Of a stretch of DNA of 64,000 nt, positions 22,779-42,048 are shown one piece after another. Under the pieces are notes generated by a model that worked only from the letters and a program-made list of their open reading frames with translations, was not told the origin of the DNA and did not search any database. The stretch spans positions 9,907,677 to 9,971,676 of the forward strand of contig CM082592.2 in assembly GCA_040954595.2 (NCBI GenBank), in the 5' to 3' direction. Made by a program: the position numbers and the translations under genes. Numbering within the stretch: position 1 is the stretch's first letter; every line of letters starts with the position of its first letter. Origin of the DNA: Balanoglossus misakiensis (lineage: Eukaryota; Animalia; Hemichordata).

Positions 22779-28374
<5,596 letters not shown>

Positions 28375-29350: not shown

Positions 29351-29716
29351 CGACGTTTTCTTCCTCATCACTTGCATCCTGGATGAGCTCGAAGCATTTT
29401 TGAAACATTAATTATCATACAAAAACGTTCAAAGGGAGAAGATGGTCTCTTTGCCGAGGTTGTTTTATATTTGATGGAATCTTTTGAGAGGCCAAGATGT
29501 AGGTCAAACTTTGACACAGATTCTATAGAAGAAGTGCGCCCCCTTCCCTCATATATATGTGAAATTCAGGAGTACGGACTGCCCCTATAAAATCTATATA
29601 TTTTATAGAAAGAATAAACAGCCAGAAAATTGCGGATTTTGTTTATAATGGTTTATTTTTCACATCCATTTCTGAGCATTTATCCCAAAAGGAGGCGAAC
29701 ATCTTTAGTAGTCAGT

Positions 29717-31075
29717 TCAGTCGAGCAAGTACATGTGAAGTGCTCCAGCGATGGCGAAGAACAGAAGTCCGACGATAATCGAAAAGAGGAGTCTGCGCCT
29801 CAATGCTCGTTGATACCACGTGCCACCTCTGGTGGCGGTAATGTTGCCTTGGTGATCGAAAAATGTGTACTCGGTAAGACTGTCTTCGCTGCTCTTATCT
29901 GTCGCGTCATCTGCCTGTTTCATGGCCAATTCGGCTTTGCTTCCACGTACTAATTTGCGGACTGCTCCCTTCCACTTGGTTTGTCTACCCTGATATAGAA
30001 AGTAATATAGAATTTACATATTTCCCTTCCTTAATAGAGTCGCTTATCACATGGCCCTGACTGCAGTGACTGGCACCTCTAGTGCTATATTAGAACTAGT
30101 GGAAATATCGCCACTTTCAGCGCAATACTATTCATTTACAGAGTGAAAAAATAATAATGAACATACCTTAGTATTTTCTGTGAATGACCGCAAACCCCAA
30201 TTCAAAGCCTGAAAGTTAATAAAAGAGATCGTTACCACTGACTGACTTCCACAATTTCAACAACCCACCACGTGTGGATAATACCAAAGTTTTGTTGGAA
30301 TTTATAAGAGAATGGAATCGAAATTTATATACATATACTTGCCAAGGACAGTAGATCATCAATATAAGCTAGCTGCTCTGGAGACGGACTCAAATTCTTG
30401 GCTTGGGCAAGATAAGACATAGCCTGTCGTGAGATAAAATGGGACGTAGTCGATGTTAGTATTCTTTAATGGATTTCACAGATCTAGAAAAATGTCTGGC
30501 ATAAATGAAACGATGTGAATAAAATCGTTATACCTGCATGTTATGACCGGTTGTGATTGCAATAGATCCGACCTTTATCAGGTACTGCAGGGTCTTCGAC
30601 TTGTTGCCAGCGGCTCGCCAGTGACGTACCAACTGAGGATAAATGCTATTGAGCTCGCTCTCGTCCTTTCCTTCTTCAGCTGCAAAACTAGTAGTTGAAA
30701 AAACATTTCATCCATTTTCCTCTTTTGATCATGTTAATTGATTTACTCTTTGGAGACAGTTACAAGTAAGTAAAAAATGTAAATTTCGAAATGATAAATG
30801 AAGATTGCTGAAGTAAACCCAGCATGTATAGAAGATAGAAATCCCTTCGATAGCTTTTGTCATTACCATGAAGGGGTTGGTACATTAATTTGTTTCAATT
30901 CTTACCTTTCCTCCGACTGTTTAGCACCGCTCTTAAGTCCCTTTAGCTTGGATTTAAATGAAGTTGACTTTGCTGTGAAAAATGAAAATGTATAAATGAT
31001 TGACAAATGGCGGTGGTGGTTATTTTTGCGGTGATGGTGAAAGGTAGGGACCTTCATCATAAACACAATGGCATG

Positions 31076-31155
<80 letters not shown>

Positions 31156-34100
31156 AATTTACCTTCTGGCTTTTCCTTCAGGTAGTGGTCTTCCAGACTG
31201 GTAGCCACCCTTCCGTGCAGCTTCTTGCGTTGGCTCTCGGTCAGCTGCGAGTAGGCGCACTCCTGCATCAGACTGGTTCTGAAGCGCAGTGTGTTCTGAT
31301 CGCTCTCATAATCCACGTAGTCCATCAGGTTGGCCCTGACCAGGTTATTGATGGATGCCAGGATTTTCTTGTTGTTGGAGTTGGGCACCACGCTCAGCAG
31401 CAGATCCCTCCCCATCGACATGCCAATCACAGCCGCGCACTTGATGACCATACGGTCGCCGGCTGGCAGTCGGTCGACCTTGGCAAGAATCATACCTATC
31501 GAAAATATGCCACAAAACAATTATTCGCAATTTGAAATTAAAAATTAAACTCTTGTGTTATCCCAATAAAATATTCTTTTCGGGATCCATACAGTACTTC
31601 TTACCTTTCAGAGAGTCTGGTAAAGGCAAGTTACTGAGTTTAACTTTTGGTGTGACGATACAGATATACTGGCTGCGATCGAGGCTTGTAGGGTCTGGTA
31701 GTATCCTCACTTTATCATTCGCTCGTAGCTCACTCACCAAAGCTTCCACCCAGGACGGTAACCCATGGCTACGCGTCTCCAGAATTCTGAAGAACAGAAA
31801 ACGAAACAGTTTTTAATTTTTCAGCAAATTTTCAAACTGTTGAAAAGTTTTACTTTGTCGTTTGCAATTTCGAAGACTTGACTTTTACTGAAGATTTTGT
31901 CAGCTTTAAATTTAAATTTTCATGTACAAATGTAGACACCTCAGACAACAATATACTCGCAAGTAAGAGGATACTATATATAATATCGATGCTTACTGCA
32001 CAAGATCTGCTGGCACTTTAACAACCTCGAGAAATTGGCAAGCCAAGGGTTCCATGTACTGCGGCTCTAGCCCTCCCAACTTGATGTTCAAAGTAAAGTC
32101 ACTGGAAAGCACTCGTGCGGCGGATGCGCATGGCTGTTGATTCGGCGGAAAGGTTCGCAAAGTCATGAGGCACACGGCGTTCGAGTCGGCCGCCAGGTCA
32201 GCCAACAGATCCCAGGACTCGGTGTCGATGAAATGGGCGTCGTCGATGGCGAAGATCAGACAGTGCCTGGATGTGATCTGAAGAGAGTGTAAGATTCTGT
32301 CGTCATTGTCATGTATAACGACAGGCATTTGGTTTCTATTGTCCCCACCAGGACATGTGACTGTTTCACGAAGCAAGAACATTTTAAAAGTTTCATGTCG
32401 TGTATTTCAAAAGCAAACACTAGTAATTATTGATACATGAAGCTACACTTGCAGACAGACGGACAGACAAGGAAACACGAACATTGTTTAGTACTTGGAA
32501 AACTTTCATCAACGTACCTGGTGGACTAATTTAACAAGAAGTTTCTTTAGTTCCTGGTCCCGTTTTGATGTGCTCATATGCGTGAACTGTTCGCCATATG
32601 GGAGCTGGTGGAGAAGAGGAGTTTCATATTATAATGTGCGTTTATTCTGTACAAGCCACCATGCACAGGTGACTCGTGATGATTCTGACAAAGTTTGGGC
32701 ATTACAGCAATACTCAGTTATTGAGAAGTTAGCGCAACTTACTTGAATACCCAGCAAGTCGTTGAGGAGACATAGATTATCTTTCACGCCCTCGGCGTCG
32801 ATTGCGTTGTAAAGGGCCTCTTCCCTTTGCACGTGACTGGTGAGCGTGTCCATGTGGAAGAGGATGAGCAACAGCTTCTTGACGGTGTAGTATGGTGTTG
32901 TGGAGTCATTCAACCAAAGTGGACATGATATCACCCTGCAAAGAGCCAAGAGCGGTAGAATAATGGTTTGTTTGAGACAGCGACCAGAGACGATCCATAC
33001 ATTTAGTTCAGCTGACTGACTGACTATCTGTCATTATACTCACTTGTGCCCCAGCTGAATCGCTTCATCCGTGGCTGACATCAACACCCGCGATTTCCCG
33101 ACACCCGCCTCGCCTTCGAAGATCACAAAACGACGGTGACTTTTCTCGCGGTGCTCCGTCATGAGACGCAGTGCCGAACTGAACAGTGACATTTCGTCGC
33201 CGTATCCTTCGTTTGAATAAAAGTAATTATTCATTACAACCACATTATTCCATGAAGTCGTCCACAAAAATCATCGCGATTAAGCGATCGATGAAAAAAT
33301 GACCGGCCGCAGTACTCCGGTCTAAACCCGATCTAAGCACAACTAAAACTACTTACCCAACAAGGGATGACCACTGTCCACTACATTCATTACATGCTGG
33401 CTCGGTCTGGTATTTGAAAAAGAAAAAGAGAAAGGGAAAGAGATGACGTCGGAATTTGGATGAACTTTATGCAGAATCTTTGATCCAAGACTCATATTTA
33501 CAGGGCAGTAAGGATGAAACAAAAACGCCAATATTCGTCTATTGAAAAGTGGCCACTTTACTCATATTAAATGTTTAAAAGTGCACTTCTGAAGTTAAAA
33601 TTAATTTTAAGAAACAAGTAATGTGGTTAAGCAGTTATCATTTCTGAAAGTTTCCAGATACTGACACACATGTCTTTCTTACTTTTGATCTTCAAGATAC
33701 TGTCTCACTATTCCAGCCTGTTGAACACCTTTCATTTCCTTGGTCGGAAGCTGCTTAAAGCAAAATCCACCAAGCTTCGACATTCTATGGGTTTCCTCGT
33801 CGGTTGCAATGACCGCTGGGTAGTGCATCATCAGACGAGCCGCCATGTTCACTTTACGACCAATCACTGTCGTTCAGAAAAAAAATGTCTTCATATACTA
33901 ATACATGTAATAGACGCTCAAGGATTTGCAATTATAGTGAATTTGTTTGCCAGATCTTGGTCATTTCATTTGCCAGCAGATTACATTTTGAAATGCAGAA
34001 ATCTGTTCCTACTGTTGCCTTTACCTGTATACTCGCATCTGTCGGGGTGGCCGACGACACCTGTGAACACGTTACCAGTGGTTACTCCCACCGATGCCTG

Positions 34101-36876
34101 GCTGTGATTGGAGAAAAAGAAAAGCAGTGTATAGTGAATCAACACATCACAGCAATTTTCATTTTACCCAGTTATGTTGTATATGCACATTTCTTTATTA
34201 TTAATATTCATAGAAATATTACTTACGCCACCTTGTTGACTTTCTCCAACCTTTCTCTAATCCTGTGCGAGCACTGCAATGCATGCGCACACTCGTTCTC
34301 GTGCTTGTATCCAGGGAGACCAAATATAACCAGGAATGTGCATCCCTAGATACAAAGAAGATGTGATTCAAACGTCAGGCGAATCCTCTTTTATCTTTGA
34401 GAAGAAAACGTTTATATACATGATCTACTGCCCTGAAAATATTGGGTTATTTAACACGTGTAACTATGCGTCCAGTCAAGAATTCCCTCATGTCTATTTG
34501 CATTATTTACACCACAAACACATGGCAACCCTTGAGGTATTTACACCATAGAATATATACGTGTACAATCGAAGTACAGACACAAAAACACTTACTTTGT
34601 CGAACATGAAAACCTTGTTCAGGCAACCTGGAAGAGATAAAAATAGAACAAAAATGACGGTGTAACCTGTTACAAACATCCAAAAGTAAATTGAACAGTT
34701 TTATTTTAATTGTGAAGAGGCTATAGATACCTTGGAACTGCACCACGGTGTCGTAGATGGCGTGGAATGTGTTTTGCAAAATGAAACACTCGTCGTCCTT
34801 GGCAACGTTTTCCAAAGTGAGATTGATGAAGACGATGGAGACTTGACGAAGCTCACACAGGTACTCCAGTGGTTGCTGCTCTTCAATCTATGTATAAATG
34901 AAATGAATAAATAAATGAACAGAGCGAAACTAAATACAAATGTACTTCAATGTGATACTTGACGGACTGTAAATCGGCTACTAACAAGACTTTAATCGAG
35001 TCTAAAGTGATAACATTACCTTATGCATAACAGGGGTCGCTATGTATGGTTCCAGCATACCCTTACGTACTGAAAAATAATGAGCAGTTGATTAGTGGAA
35101 AACGTACACTATTTATATTTTACTTTGCACATGTAAAGTTACTGGTATATTTCATTTCGAGCGTCTCGTGATTCTGTCAGTCTGTAAGTACACTGTAAGT
35201 ACACTTTGACTTTAAACCTGACACTTACTAACTGTCTGGATCTTTTGGCGTTTCCTTGGCAATGCTGTGTTGAACTTTCCTGATGATTTCTTTTTGCTCA
35301 TTTTGGTCTCTGTCAACGAAACGAAGAAAGATGCAATTTATTGAAGCAAGTCTTCTTTCTTAATATGGCACCGATCGAGAAAGAATCTTACTCATCGTCT
35401 GTAACGATTATAATTGCGAATACTTACTCTCTTTTTCCTTTGGTGCCTTCACACCAAAAACTTTGGCCCAGTCTTTGGTGGTGCTCTTGATCTGGTGAAA
35501 AAAACAGAGCTCTGTCAGTTGGCAATATCGTTGATCATGCCATTAAAAACATATTGTTCTTCGCGTCAACGCATATAACGTATCCAAAATAATTGTTTTT
35601 AACTCATCATAATGTTCTCCACAAACCTGGACATGTTTGGAATCTTCCATCATGGCGAAATTAGCAAGTTCTTTGTCCGGCAGCACTTTCCAGGCCTTTG
35701 GAGACAACACGACCAATCCTGGACGTGCAGCGCCCTCGGCGTTCCTGACGTTTTCAATGCAGGGTCCTGACATGACAAATTGTTGGACGTCTTGGTTTCC
35801 CAGGAACGTGATGAAGACCGGGCCAGCAGCGATACCTATACATAGTTGTAAGCAAAAGTTAGTTTAATGGAAAAAAAGAGCATGTTTTAAAAATTCGCTT
35901 TACAGGGAACACATTATGCAGGAAATGGGTTTTACATGAATTTGGCATTATCTGAAGTGACAGAAATGACGTCGGAACATACCAATTTTGACGCGAAGCT
36001 GGACGCCAACTTCTGTGTCCCAGTCATCACATTTATACTGAATGTTGAGTCCACATCTGACAGCGCTGGCCAGTCCATGGATGACAGTTTTGACTGAAGT
36101 CTCCCAAAAAGCTAAGATGGCGTCACCTTGCAAACGGAAGGACGTGAATAAAACACATTAAACGCTGCTCTTATTCACGTGTTTCAGTAAAGATAAAATA
36201 ATATTACAAGGAAAAGAATTGTTACGTTTCTTTTTTTATTTGACAATATCATCACAGTACCTGCAAATTTGATGACGTCGCCTTCAAAATTCAACACGTT
36301 CTCCACGATAGCGCCGATGTATTCGTTTAGAGTTTTAGTCAGCGCGTCGGAGCCGCATCCTTTCTTGGCTTCGGCGCCATACTTCTCGCATAGAGCAGTA
36401 AATCCTGTATTTAAAAAGGGGGAACACTTTGGCCGTAAATCATATAAAAAGAACCAAAATGGTATCCAAATACGGGTGTTTCTTACTTTAGTTTTGCATC
36501 GAAATACATGAAATGGTCTATAGTGCTTACCCGACACATCCACAAACATGAGAACACCGAATAGGGACTCGGAGTGCGGCAACTTCTTTTGAAGGCCGTT
36601 CTGGATTACAACGTCTGGGACATGACTGACGAGCTGACTTGTATAGTCTGTCGAAACATTCGAGAAATAACAAAAAAAATAAGAACAAGATTCATCACAA
36701 GCCTGCAATACTGTACTTTCAGTTTGCTCGCAAACGGTTGCCACAGTTCTTAACTTTCATCGCGTAGGGCCTTTCAAGTCTGTGCCTTCAAGTTCAAGTT
36801 GGTTAGAATCGACATGGATCTTACCCGCATCAATTTTTGATGGTTTAACTTTAAGCGCCTTCTTCTTTGCAGACAT
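29717..36876 (-). CDS. ADCY10: Soluble-type adenylyl cyclase (ADCY10/sAC-like): two class III cyclase domains, a STAND P-loop NTPase, a short helical region and a C-terminal transmembrane segment
   Basis: C1: VSHVPDVV, GVLMFVDVSGFTAL, DVIKFAGDAILAFW, LRVKIG. C2: YLCELRQVSIVFINL, NKVFMFDKGCTFLVIFGLPG, GVTTGNVFTGVVGH, EYTVIGRKVNMAARLMMHY. Walker A GEAGVGKS and Walker B FAIDDAHFID. Final exons join in frame to ...RRRLLFSIIVGLLFFAIAGALHMYLLD*. Confidence 0.9.
31079..31152. repeat. (CT)37 microsatellite in an ADCY10 intron
   Basis: Perfect dinucleotide run starting a few bases inside the donor site. Confidence 0.98.
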
Positions 36877-37050
36877 TTTGCGCTTAAAAAGATTGACGTG
36901 CAATTTACGGAACTGTCATCTTTGCTACATGTCAAAGAGTTGTACAGCGCAAAAGTTAATTTTCCCAAGATGCAGCGCGCCCATTGTGCTGTTTGTTCTT
37001 TTGTTTCTGATGGTGTCACATCAGGTCAAAGGTTGTTTCAGGTCACCAAA
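36877..37050. promoter_or_regulatory. Compact bidirectional promoter of ADCY10-like and ERAL1
   Basis: Only 174 bp between divergent ATGs. ZNF143/Staf-like TTCCCAAGATGCAGCGCG at 36962-36979 and YY1-like CAAAATGGC at the ERAL1 start. Confidence 0.65.
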
Positions 37051-40000
37051 ATGGCAGCCACCATGCTTTCACGAGTTTTGTTTTGGAGACGAGTTTTTAC
37101 CAATATCGCATATTTTAACAGGCGATCGGAACCGAGGCGAGGTAAGAACGTTCATTTGGTCAAATGTCATTGTTTGACAACCTTCAAAAACACCATCACC
37201 CTGTACACAGTGCGGCTGCACGCTGCAAAATGACGATCAATGGACGTTCTACTCGTTGACAACTAGAACGGCTGTGTGTTGCATCACAGGCCTTTGCGCA
37301 CCAGCGAGTCGAGCCTGAGTTACGATCGTGATGCAACTGTATTATAATTTTCTACCGCAGGGCCTGTGAGAGTGTATCAGATGTGGCAGTGTCTGTACCA
37401 TAGCGATGTCTACAATTCTACAGGACCAGAACCACAAAACAAAACGATTGAAGAAAAGGGAAAATACCATGAAATCCAGCCATACAGAGAATCACTGAAA
37501 CCAATGACTACAAATAAAGGTCTGTGCACAATTTTAATTTGAAGCCAAACGTTATAATGTACATTCTCTCTCTGAACATTTGTTGATTGTGCTATGGGTT
37601 CGTCATCTTGGTTTATCTCTGGTTTCTAATTTTAGCCTATCATGAGTTATTGTGCTTGCAAGTTCCTGACCAACCAGAAGATGCCAAGATACTAAGAGTG
37701 GCAGTGATTGGTTCACCCAATGCAGGCAAATCAACGTTAACCAATCAGCTGATGGGTAGATGGGTGAGTGTACATGTATATTTAATGGCAATGGCAATGA
37801 CATTAAAAATAATGAAAACGGCAATATTTAAAGAATGTTTATAATTCACACAGAATGGAAAGTTTTTGAAAACCCATTTGTACTTAGTGGTTGTTTTTTT
37901 TACAGGTATCATCAGTGTCAAGTAAGGTACATACAACTAGAAAGAGAACAACAGCTGTACTGACAGAAGGTGATACACAAATTGTGAGTAGAAATCATGT
38001 ACAATGCAACACCTGATTTGTCAGAACTCACTGTGCTGCAGTAAAGTCTGTTTGAAGGGACTTACTGAGAAAATTGTTCAGCTTGCAATGCAAAAGGGTT
38101 TTGTTTATGGAAGTTCTATTTACACACTGATTCATTCCTTCATTTGTGTATAGGTATTTCTGGACACTCCTGGTATGGTTGATCCAAGAAAAGCCAAAAG
38201 GTAAGTCTGGAATGAAGATGTTGATTTAGATACAGTGGTATAATATGTCTATAAACATGCATTCTTATGGTTATCAACTTTCTTCACAGACACAACTTGG
38301 ATAGACCGATGGTGTCTGATCCAAAAAACGTCTTTGAAGATGCTGACCTCGGTAAGTTGCATAAACCAGCCATGAAATTTCATCATATACAAACACTCAA
38401 TACAAAGTAAAATGTATTGGTCAATTCTGATAGGAGTACATATTATAAATTTTTCAAGCAATTTACATGCAAGTATTAGAGGTAGTTAGTTTTCTTCTTG
38501 TTTCTCATCCTACTTCTGGTAAAACTGCTCATAAAAATGAAATTTGGATTGTGTATTCTTTTCAGTGATTGTATTGGTTGACATCTCAAATAAATGGACC
38601 AGGTATAAGTTAGATCCAGATATACTTCTGACACTGTATTCTAATCCAACTATTCCGTCAGTCCTTGTACTCAATAAGGTAAGCTGTGTGTGTGTGTGTG
38701 AGTGAATTACTGCTGGAAGGAATTCCAGATTTTTCGTGGTGGCATTACATTTCAAATCCATATATGCATCCATAGAATACTTATGAAAGTTCAATTTCTC
38801 TTCCAGATTGACACTGTGAAAACCAAACACATGCTTCTAGGATTGACCGCCCAACTCACAGAGGGTATCGTTGGAGGCCAGAGCTTTGAAGTGGATGAGT
38901 CAACAGCAAAGTTACTTGGTTCCCATAGCGCAGGGCAACCCATGAGTTTGAACATTGTGAAGAAATTAAACCATCTGGAACGCAAACTGAGAGAGGAAAG
39001 TGAAAAAAAGCTGCAGTTGAAGGACTTGAATGTTGAAGATGTGGACAGAGAAAAACTGGCCTCAGTTTACCAAGACTGGAAGAGACGACAGGCTAAGAAA
39101 ACATTTCAGGAGAGTACAATTGAAAAAACAGATCCAGTGACTGCACATAATGTCGCTAAATTATGGACAGAAAACTTTTCCACCGAGGGAGTCAATAAAA
39201 GTGTCGATGAGAATGATTTTGAAGAAACTGGCCAGGTATTTACAAGCAGGGCGGTTCTGCCACCAAGAGATGAACCCACCTGTGATGATAGGTCAGGTGA
39301 TAGGGAGGAATCAGGTGACTTAGAATCAAATAATGACGTCACCACGAAGGAGGAATCCGCAGACTCTGAATCACAGGATGAACTCAGTCTCAATGAACTT
39401 CAGCAGTTCCTCAGCAGGGAGGATATTGATGAAATCTTGGAGGAGAACTTGAAAGAGGAAGTTTTGAATTCCAAGCTCAAAGGGATAAATCTGAAGGATT
39501 TAAAATGGATTAAGCACAGATTAAGGATTGAACAGACGAAGAGGATTAAGAGAGCGATACGAAAGAGGAGTGGCTGGCCACGATTTGAAGCTGTGTTTAT
39601 GGTGTCTGCTTTGGACGGTGAAGGCTCTCAAGATTTAGAGGTATCAGTCTATGTACTAGTGCAGTTTACATGACAAAAGTGCTAGTGATCAGTGAGCGAG
39701 CATTGACTTTTATGTGTTCTATTTGTCCAGTTATCCTGACAGAGCACAATAAAATCTCGGTTGAAATTAATACAAGCTCTGCATCATTCGCAGGAATTTT
39801 TATTTGCTAATGCCAGACCAGGAGACTGGGAATACCATCCAGACGTGGTGACCGACCAAGGTCCGGAAGAAGTCATCCATGAAGTGATCCGTGGAAAACT
39901 GTTGGAATATCTTCCGGAAGAAGTACCCTATCAACTGAAACAGGTTATGTTTCCTTAGTTCCTCTCATAGTGTATTGGTAAACTTGGTTTCCATGATTTA

Positions 40001-40377: not shown

Positions 40378-40962
40378 TCACAACAGTGTTGTGAAGACAG
40401 TACTGTATCCATGGAGGATGTTGCTCACTTTGCCACAATTTTAAAGGCATTGAATTATTAAGAGGGGGTTAACAACAATGACAGTGACTTATATGCAATG
40501 TTGTTAATATGAACCCCCTTCTATTTTATGGATTTACCAGTAGGGACCTTGAAACTATATCCTGTATAACTAATCATGCTATAATTTATGTATTGTCAGA
40601 TTACATTGCCTGGGGTTTCTAGAATGTTTCAATAAATACAGCTGTTATTTACAAAACATGTGTTGTGTGGTACATGTGTTTTAATATATTGGAGTGAATG
40701 TTGAAATCTTGCTACAGATTTCCCAAAATACAGTTCTCCCCTGCTTAAGTCAGGTGCTTAGTAAAATTAAAATAAATGTGAGTACTTACTGGCTATGCGA
40801 GCGTCGTTGACCTAGATGACCTTGATGTCGTCTGCTACAGCCATGCCCGATTGGTCCATTTATTTTTACCCATGATGCAATTTAGAAAATGGCTTCCGTC
40901 GTCCACGTTGTACTACACAAGATGTAAACACTGCATGTTTTTGCTGATTCTCTGTGTTAAGC

Positions 40963-42048
40963 ATGTCCTCAGACACGGCTTCGTGGTACGAAACGCTATT
41001 TGATGATATTTTTCAAGTAGGGCTTGCCGTAATTTTCATAGTCTTGATTTTCGTATGCAAACGATATCGATGGTTCCTGCCAGCTGTAGATAGGGACCCA
41101 GTTCAAGATGACACTGCGGATGCAGAAGACTTCACTGCGTGCAGCTCACCCGATTGCGTCCGATGTCGTAAATACAAACAACTTGAAGGCCAGCTCTTGC
41201 CGAAACTGGAAGAATTTGCATCGAAGAATTCCTGGGATGGGCTCGAAAGAATCCTCAGCGCGCTCGAAGAAGCGGACATCCATTCAGAAAACCAGGAAGA
41301 CACCCTTCAGCGACCAAACGTCTTCTTTCTTCCGGGTTTGCGTGCTCTTCCCTGGTGCGAAGATGCTCACGGTCGAGATCTCTGCAAGATGAAAGATAGT
41401 TTTCATGGCATCCTGCAAGATTTCACAAATATATACAGAGAATTTCTGGGCGGAAATACACAGGGATGGCAGACGAACAACGTCCCGACAGGGGAGTGGC
41501 ACGTATTTCATCTGATAAACCAAGGGGAGAAAATCACAGAAAACTGTCGGAGGTGCCCGGATACTGTCCAGCTGCTGACCGATTTGAACGACGTGATGAA
41601 CCGCAACGTATTTGGCAACGCTACTTTCTCTGTCCTTCAACCAGGCACACACATAACTGAACATTATGGGCCAACCAACGTTAGATTGCGAGCCCACATT
41701 GGTATGTTGTGTTGTTATTATTTACTCACATGAAAGTGACAGATAACTTGTACTTGTAGTAACAAATGATCTTTAATTTCTGCTAGCTGCCACGCCCCTT
41801 TCAAATGCAGTTTTTCTTTCAAATCCACAGGGCTAATTGTACCACCGAAGTGTAGCCTCACAGTTGCCGGGGAAACCAGATCCTGGGTGGAGCAGGAGTG
41901 TTTGATGTTCGATGACTCTTTCCTCCATGAAGCAAGGCATGATGGGAAAGATGAAGATGGACCTCGAGTTGTCTTCATGGTCGATTTCTGGCATCCTGAG
42001 GTAACAGACCTGGAAAGGAAAGTGTTGGATGAACTCTTTTGCATCTAA
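40963..42048 (+). CDS. ASPHD2: Aspartate beta-hydroxylase domain-containing protein (ASPHD1/2-like 2OG-Fe(II) oxygenase). Exons 40963-41701 and 41831-42048
   Basis: N-terminal TM ([13 protein letters not shown]), [50 protein letters not shown]. Confidence 0.92.

Follow-up and report, generated by a model that had tools for sequence, protein, structure and literature searches.

The minus strand of the window (the whole 64-kb stretch of Balanoglossus misakiensis DNA analysed here) carries, from 36876 to 29717, an intact 25-exon gene of the ADCY10 ('soluble' adenylyl cyclase, sAC) type, the predicted product of which is 1111 amino acids (aa) long, has its sole stop at the end and terminates in a hydrophobic helix. 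The gene is probably an intact second ADCY10 copy, belonging to an ancient short form common to acorn worms and echinoderms; its C-terminal helix would lie in the membrane of the ER or of a later secretory compartment, and its cytosolic C1-C2 pair would make cAMP locally without G proteins, the last trait being proposed by analogy with sAC. The whole model is 80% identical over 1100 columns to the Ptychodera flava protein XP_070572450.1 (1110 aa, labelled 'adenylate cyclase type 10-like' in RefSeq), the tail included and the 3' junctions unbroken, and a query with the terminal exon alone returned one protein out of 188 candidates, the same record, with 67% identity across the full exon. This identity to an orthologue rules out that the tail is a chance read-through. 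A second copy in the 64-kb window was not found by tblastn.

The exon joins are based on splice signals and on gene models of other species. Exon 1 (36825-36876) holds the start codon at 36876 and encodes a hydrophilic N-terminus with no signal peptide. C1 starts in exon 2 (36531-36647), which carries the metal-binding D54 (human D47), and continues through exon 3 (36261-36404; K102, human K95, of the bicarbonate site, at 36268-36270), exon 4 (35983-36126; D106 and K151, human D99 and K144) and exon 5 (35627-35835; R183, human R176, of the bicarbonate site, at 35744-35746). The C1-C2 linker in exon 6 (35428-35491) is followed by a basic linker in exon 7 (35229-35309) and further linker in exon 8 (35020-35069). 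C2 starts in exon 9 (34731-34887) and runs over exon 10 (34596-34627; K344, human K334, and the FMF pocket residues), exon 11 (34227-34345) and exon 12 (34025-34101; T415, human T405) to its end in exon 13 (33683-33866; N422 and R426, human N412 and R416). Exon 14 (33357-33406) links to the STAND domain, the NTPase of which begins in exon 15 (33044-33206), with Walker A at 33091-33114 and a paralog-specific Y495 (33202-33204) replacing the arginine of the GR motif, and extends over exons 16 (32743-32935) and 17 (32518-32604) to exon 18 (31997-32277), which encodes Walker B (DD) and the next strand. The helical domain with its GLP motif is in exon 19 (31605-31786), the winged-helix region, without the first Cys-rich insert of long animal sACs, in exon 20 (31163-31495), and a basic linker in place of the second Cys-rich insert in exon 21 (30906-30972). 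Exons 22 (30534-30687) and 23 (30343-30423) encode a first and a second TPR-like hairpin, the former placed by a model of the Saccoglossus orthologue; exon 24 (30167-30208) is short, and the terminal exon 25 (29717-29989) encodes a basic helix containing a Trp, an acidic linker, the tail anchor and the stop. A candidate polyadenylation signal (AATAAA, 29652-29657) lies 60 nt past the stop. The last four exons had been joined in frame by the first-pass annotation and are indeed present and continuous in the 1111-aa model; it had overlooked exon 30906-30972 and left the GC donor after 30343 unremarked. Acceptor 30687 requires the overlooked exon; a join that omits this exon and enters at acceptor 30679 stays in frame as well and gives 1086 aa. 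Intron 20 contains a long (GA)n/(TC)n microsatellite (31080-31151). In older RefSeq annotation of Saccoglossus the gene is divided between two models, one of 466 aa for the cyclase and one of 638 aa for the NTPase and tail, which a newer model of 1140 aa unites (records P0011, P0079, P0078); the split models may have hidden the tailed architecture.

The segment at aa 1088-1106 (29735-29791) is a predicted transmembrane tail anchor. As in all transmembrane calls made here, the prediction comes from hydropathy sums (Kyte-Doolittle scale, KD) and not from a trained predictor: the 19-residue mean is 2.41, the maximum elsewhere in the protein being 1.50, and the helix is preceded by a net charge of +4 and followed by five residues with a net charge of -1. 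The terminal hydrophobic helix behind a basic patch, which had first drawn attention to this gene, is thus present. It lies fewer than 30 residues from the C-terminus and is the sole predicted membrane segment, the two six-helix membrane domains being absent in that no other segment exceeds a KD of 1.50. With a single terminal hydrophobic helix, a short tail after it and no signal peptide, the protein has by hydropathy the sequence features of a tail-anchored protein. Ends of equal hydrophobicity occur in three of the 351 stop-to-stop frames of at least 60 aa in the window, exon 25 among them. Between the cyclase ATG (36876, minus) and that of an Era-like GTPase gene running the other way (37051, plus; PF01926 in 37587-37841) lie 174 bp (36877-37050), which leave little space for an upstream signal-peptide exon; if the cyclase had a bidirectional promoter in common with this housekeeping gene, broad expression would be likelier than expression confined to sperm. 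The basic helix (aa 1024-1038, 29939-29983), which may resemble calmodulin-binding helices, has a Trp that is invariant in 13/13 tailed orthologues aligned. Pfam searches with the terminal exon alone and with exon 20 alone gave no domain, and in a protein atlas the C-terminal 180 residues gave sub-0.9 matches only (unnamed and TPR clusters).

The distribution of the tail was followed in a cluster-level set of 228 proteins of at least 400 aa, the window model counted in, gathered by three homology searches, a profile search of 1.84 billion representatives (best 150) and cluster look-ups. Among the matches listed, a terminal transmembrane-like helix is found in 20 of the 228, all 20 being of the short paralog and coming from 13 species: that of the window, Ptychodera, Glandiceps, Saccoglossus, Asterias amurensis, Acanthaster, Patiria, Amphiura, Diadema, two Lytechinus, Strongylocentrotus and Antedon. 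None of the remaining 208 among the matches listed (long animal sACs, bacterial-type records and five tail-less records of the short paralog) has one. The conservation in relatives that the first-pass annotation had proposed to look for is hence found in hemichordates and echinoderms alike, and the tailed orthologues in 13 species rule out a species-specific novelty. Five of the 25 short-paralog records were scored without a tail, namely Holothuria (907 aa), Patiria isoform X2, Asterias rubens, a partial Saccoglossus and a partial Anneissia record; the Holothuria model and Patiria X2 stop ahead of the TPR hairpins, the Asterias rubens model exits the helix half-way, and some of these records may be real soluble isoforms. 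Judged from the protein sequences, the conservation makes a membrane anchor well supported.

Between the cyclase core and the tail there is a STAND module. Pfam recognises PF00211 in two stretches of the Ptychodera orthologue, corresponding to tandem class III cyclase domains, and PF13191 over cut-off after C2; Walker A and Walker B are intact. An AlphaFold model of the Saccoglossus C-half, built from an 80-row alignment (pLDDT 84, pTM 0.80), contains NTPase, helical and winged-helix parts followed by four confident helices forming two hairpins, and ends in a weak basic helix, a disordered linker and an isolated terminal helix. In Foldseek it matches the STAND folds of CED-4, PH0952, Apaf-1 and MalT (E 9e-9 to 6e-7). 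The full-length model was poor (pLDDT 60, pTM 0.32) and served for family matches only. The claim that most of the TPR tail has been lost is borne out: in 11 tailed rows the stretch beyond the YPQLxxHW motif is 138-215 residues long, compared with some 470-700 in long sACs that are complete, and in the window protein it is 159, tail counted, in place of a TPR-like region of about 500 residues.

Several traits mark the short form as one paralog. In a 39-row alignment the STAND GR motif reads GY in 10/12 and xY in 12/12 short-paralog rows, while R is kept in 25/27 others, and a single column has C in all 12 short-paralog rows versus S in all 27 others. Both Cys-rich inserts are missing from the short paralog; the first is found in 27/27 others. 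Long sACs from cnidarians to mammals have the two inserts, the second being reduced in molluscs and a few others. The inserts, which lie in the winged-helix region (CxC plus flanking Cys; CxxC ... CxC) and are conserved from cnidarians to vertebrates, look like metal-binding sites. Long and short copies occur together in at least seven species (Glandiceps, Asterias amurensis, Patiria, Acanthaster, Diadema, Lytechinus pictus and Antedon). An IQ-TREE LG+C20 tree joins the hemichordate and echinoderm tailed forms in one clade with a support of 99/96; it was run on 24 of the 39 rows, the other 15, which included the mammal, having been removed as near-duplicates or long branches. The clade is not firmly placed among bilaterian sACs (support 80/82), which makes the duplication at least as old as the split between hemichordates and echinoderms, over 500 million years ago, and maybe older.

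Two alternatives to an ancient, anchored paralog concern its history and its mature product. The hemichordate and echinoderm tailed forms might have arisen by two separate truncations of the long gene, as a FastTree of all 39 rows would have it, in which the tailed proteins fall in two groups that do not join; the tail sequences, moreover, cannot be aligned between the phyla (hydrophobicity and position being what is retained), and the pocket residues differ. Such a double origin is nevertheless improbable: the GY, the S-to-C change and the loss of both inserts are common to both groups, the truncation point is identical and the Trp of the basic helix invariant, and beside the LG+C20 tree two AU tests reject a grouping of the hemichordate tailed forms with the long Glandiceps copy (p-AU 0.006) and of the echinoderm tailed forms with the long echinoderm copies (p-AU 0.002), both groups having been chosen after the FastTree topology was seen. 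Scanned column by column, the alignment is less decisive, with 8 columns in favour of the tailed clade, 7 in favour of the hemichordate tailed forms with the long Glandiceps copy and 1 in favour of the echinoderm pair. The main product might also be soluble, the tail exon being minor or unused. Splice types are GT-AG in 23 of the 24 introns and GC-AG in the one after 30343 (30209-30342), where a competing GT donor at 30339, 4 nt downstream of the GC, when joined to 30208 shifts the frame and leads to a 1021-aa end without the tail; of six ways tried to splice onward from exon 23, three retain the tail. Use of this donor, or an earlier termination, would be in line with the canonical GT, with its U1 consensus score of 6 of 9, equal to that of the GC site, with a shifted stop in the second-last exon, adjoining the last junction, from where decay is not expected, and with the tail-less RefSeq models of Patiria (X2) and Holothuria. 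A predominantly soluble product is very improbable all the same, in view of an exon 24 that is conserved in the GC frame only (that of the Ptychodera, Glandiceps and Saccoglossus orthologues, none of which fits the shifted reading), an exon 25 that resembles Ptychodera throughout, the retention of the tail in 13 species, and a consensus G at -1 and AAGT at +3 to +6 that the GC site has and the GT site lacks. The tandem GC/GT donors at 30339-30343 are also a possible splice switch between an anchored and a 1021-aa soluble enzyme.

The cyclase core matches human sAC with an E of 3e-95, and its best matches in the PDB are human sAC. The equivalents of human D47, D99, K144, K334, T405, N412 and R416 are all intact, and this earlier claim was confirmed against both human sAC and the mammalian ADCY10 record P0111, which retains human numbering and served as the mammalian reference; koala and camel matches tried as ADCY10 controls lack catalytic residues. 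The bicarbonate ligands of sAC are given as K95 and R176 in PMC12867704. Their counterparts in the window protein, K102 and R183 (in ENVR), are both present, and in this respect the first-pass annotation was right about an intact bicarbonate site; the arginine it had named, in LRVKIG, is the wrong residue and was discarded, as alignment to human sAC puts it at R142.

The K/R pair occurs in 4/4 hemichordate tailed copies, the long Glandiceps copy having N/N; long echinoderm copies are K/N and echinoderm tailed copies E/N (7-8 orthologues). Three echinoderm orthologues checked (P0013, P0075, P0083) have a charge-reversed pocket (K95E, M337E, R176N), the residues of which hint at proton or cation sensing. 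This acidic pocket (E95, E337, N176) would be unable to work by bicarbonate, and since the echinoderm tailed copies combine E/N with a second acidic residue, bicarbonate sensing is not family-wide. For the acorn-worm pocket with its mammalian K95/R176 pair, the chances that it answers to bicarbonate appear evenly balanced. According to PMC12867704, the sea-urchin and salmon sACs respond to pH, restoring R176 in the sea-urchin enzyme (N198R) did not confer a bicarbonate response, and bicarbonate in marine invertebrates, at 1-5 mM, is below the human constant. As the N198R enzyme is still blind to bicarbonate, the K and R residues permit but do not establish bicarbonate gating. The supplement table of the same source lists Saccoglossus, the single hemichordate entry, as K/R; this fits the tailed paralog rather than the long gene, and, no accession having been found in four supplement files, a mix-up of the paralogs is a mere possibility.

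What gates the enzyme and where its tail is inserted allow further alternatives to the preferred reading. Gating by pH or another cue in all members, with the hemichordate K and R being structural or vestigial, falls only a little short of an even chance: it would agree with the pH activation of the sea-urchin and salmon sACs and the bicarbonate-blind N198R, with the residues of the echinoderm orthologues, and with the departure of the window protein from mammals at the pocket-near positions 166, 167, 172 and 180. It sits less well with the retention of both K and R in every hemichordate tailed copy beside a long Glandiceps copy without them, and with L102, V175, F336, M337 and F338, which equal the mammalian pocket. 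As to the membrane, the terminal helices differ between the phyla: hemichordate tails have a KD of 2.3-3.2 and a net charge of -1 to -3 behind the helix, echinoderm helices are weaker (1.8-2.0 in several), and sea-urchin tails carry a charge of +1 to +2. In mammalian cells, according to PMC5450235, ER clients have hydrophobic helices and low tail charge, and tail charges are about 0.2 (0.21) for the ER, about 1.1 (1.12) for mitochondria and 6 for peroxisomes, the classes overlapping. By these values hemichordate tails would fit the ER or secretory membranes, and sea-urchin tails would be ambiguous. Insertion into the mitochondrial outer membrane or another non-secretory organelle is unlikely; it would be compatible with the less hydrophobic sea-urchin and crinoid tails, whose C-terminal charge is +1 to +2, with the overlap of the mammalian classes and with the 174-bp head-to-head region, the Era-like GTPase being presumably mitochondrial, and it is opposed by the hemichordate tails, which match the reported ER pattern, a rule drawn from mammalian cells.

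The preferred reading, a second ADCY10 copy anchored in a secretory membrane, would then work as follows. The protein would be made in the cytosol and inserted post-translationally by its tail, with the enzyme facing the cytosol and the C1-C2 pair making cAMP at the membrane surface; given the hydrophobic helix and the neutral-to-negative five-residue tail, an ER or secretory membrane seems a likelier destination than mitochondria or peroxisomes. With the TPR sensor and Cys-rich inserts gone and GR changed to GY, control may have moved from a ligand-reading tail to membrane position and the allosteric pocket, the STAND switch perhaps being retuned as a further control.

Compared with mammalian full-length sAC (ADCY10, sACfl), the window protein has the same tandem C1-C2, catalytic residues, K95/R176 and STAND NTPase after C2, but it is about 500 residues shorter, its TPR region is reduced to two hairpins, the Cys-rich inserts are lost, GY stands for GR, and, unlike P0111 and every other long form screened, it terminates in a hydrophobic helix. 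By hydropathy it thereby departs from the usual definition of an sAC as having no transmembrane segment. The nearest relatives among the matches listed (37-47% identity) are the long invertebrate sACs of echinoderm and coral sperm, which are about 190 kDa, pH-activated and K/N; in sperm the long invertebrate form is membrane-associated according to PMC12867704. The transmembrane cyclases ADCY1-9, which are weak matches, have in common with it a predicted membrane-bound source of cAMP and a C1/C2 pseudo-heterodimer; the window protein has one helix in place of two six-helix domains, and an sAC-type core with a STAND module. Bacterial cyclase-STAND-TPR proteins, PH0952, MalT and Apaf-1/CED-4 have the same fold of NTPase, helical and winged-helix domains and start of the TPR; here the sensor repeats are nearly gone, and the bacterial-type records screened are without a terminal hydrophobic helix. 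To judge from its sequence, the protein is like tail-anchored clients of the GET/TRC40 or EMC routes in lacking a signal peptide and having a single helix fewer than 30 residues from the C-terminus.

A description of a tail-anchored sAC was not found in the non-subscription literature searched, and the RefSeq models already include the tail without labelling it, calling the protein simply 'adenylate cyclase type 10-like'. The suspicion that the architecture is undescribed thus stands, and it is a real, conserved and apparently undescribed ADCY10 variant. Animal adenylyl cyclases are classified first of all as soluble or transmembrane, and a membrane-anchored sAC paralog, present in two phyla and in the sea urchin, a classic sAC model, would break this division. 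As a natural deletion experiment the short form also bears on the C-terminal region of ADCY10, hitherto unexplained, in that the STAND switch was kept and the sensor repeats were dropped, and it offers a clean test of bicarbonate versus pH in a marine invertebrate enzyme that naturally has K95/R176 beside a long paralog without them. Work on echinoderm sAC with inhibitors or antibodies may have been registering two enzymes. It is a tentative, on the whole rather doubtful generalisation that ambulacrarians possess a third kind of animal adenylyl cyclase, a broadly expressed, tail-anchored sAC core on an organelle that is neither soluble nor of the twelve-helix type, its allosteric pocket having been retuned towards opposite ends, to a K/R bicarbonate pocket in acorn worms and to an acidic E/N/E proton or cation pocket in echinoderms, the long paralog serving sperm; if true, part of the 'sea-urchin sAC' activity credited to membranes and somatic tissue would be that of the tailed gene.

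Two further genes lie nearby. Directly downstream of the cyclase and on the same (minus) strand is a Piwi gene (about 25900-28372) with Piwi_N and PAZ domains and an RG-rich N-terminus from an ATG at 28372, and a gene of two exons on the plus strand (40948-42048) encodes an aspartyl/asparaginyl beta-hydroxylase domain (PF05118).
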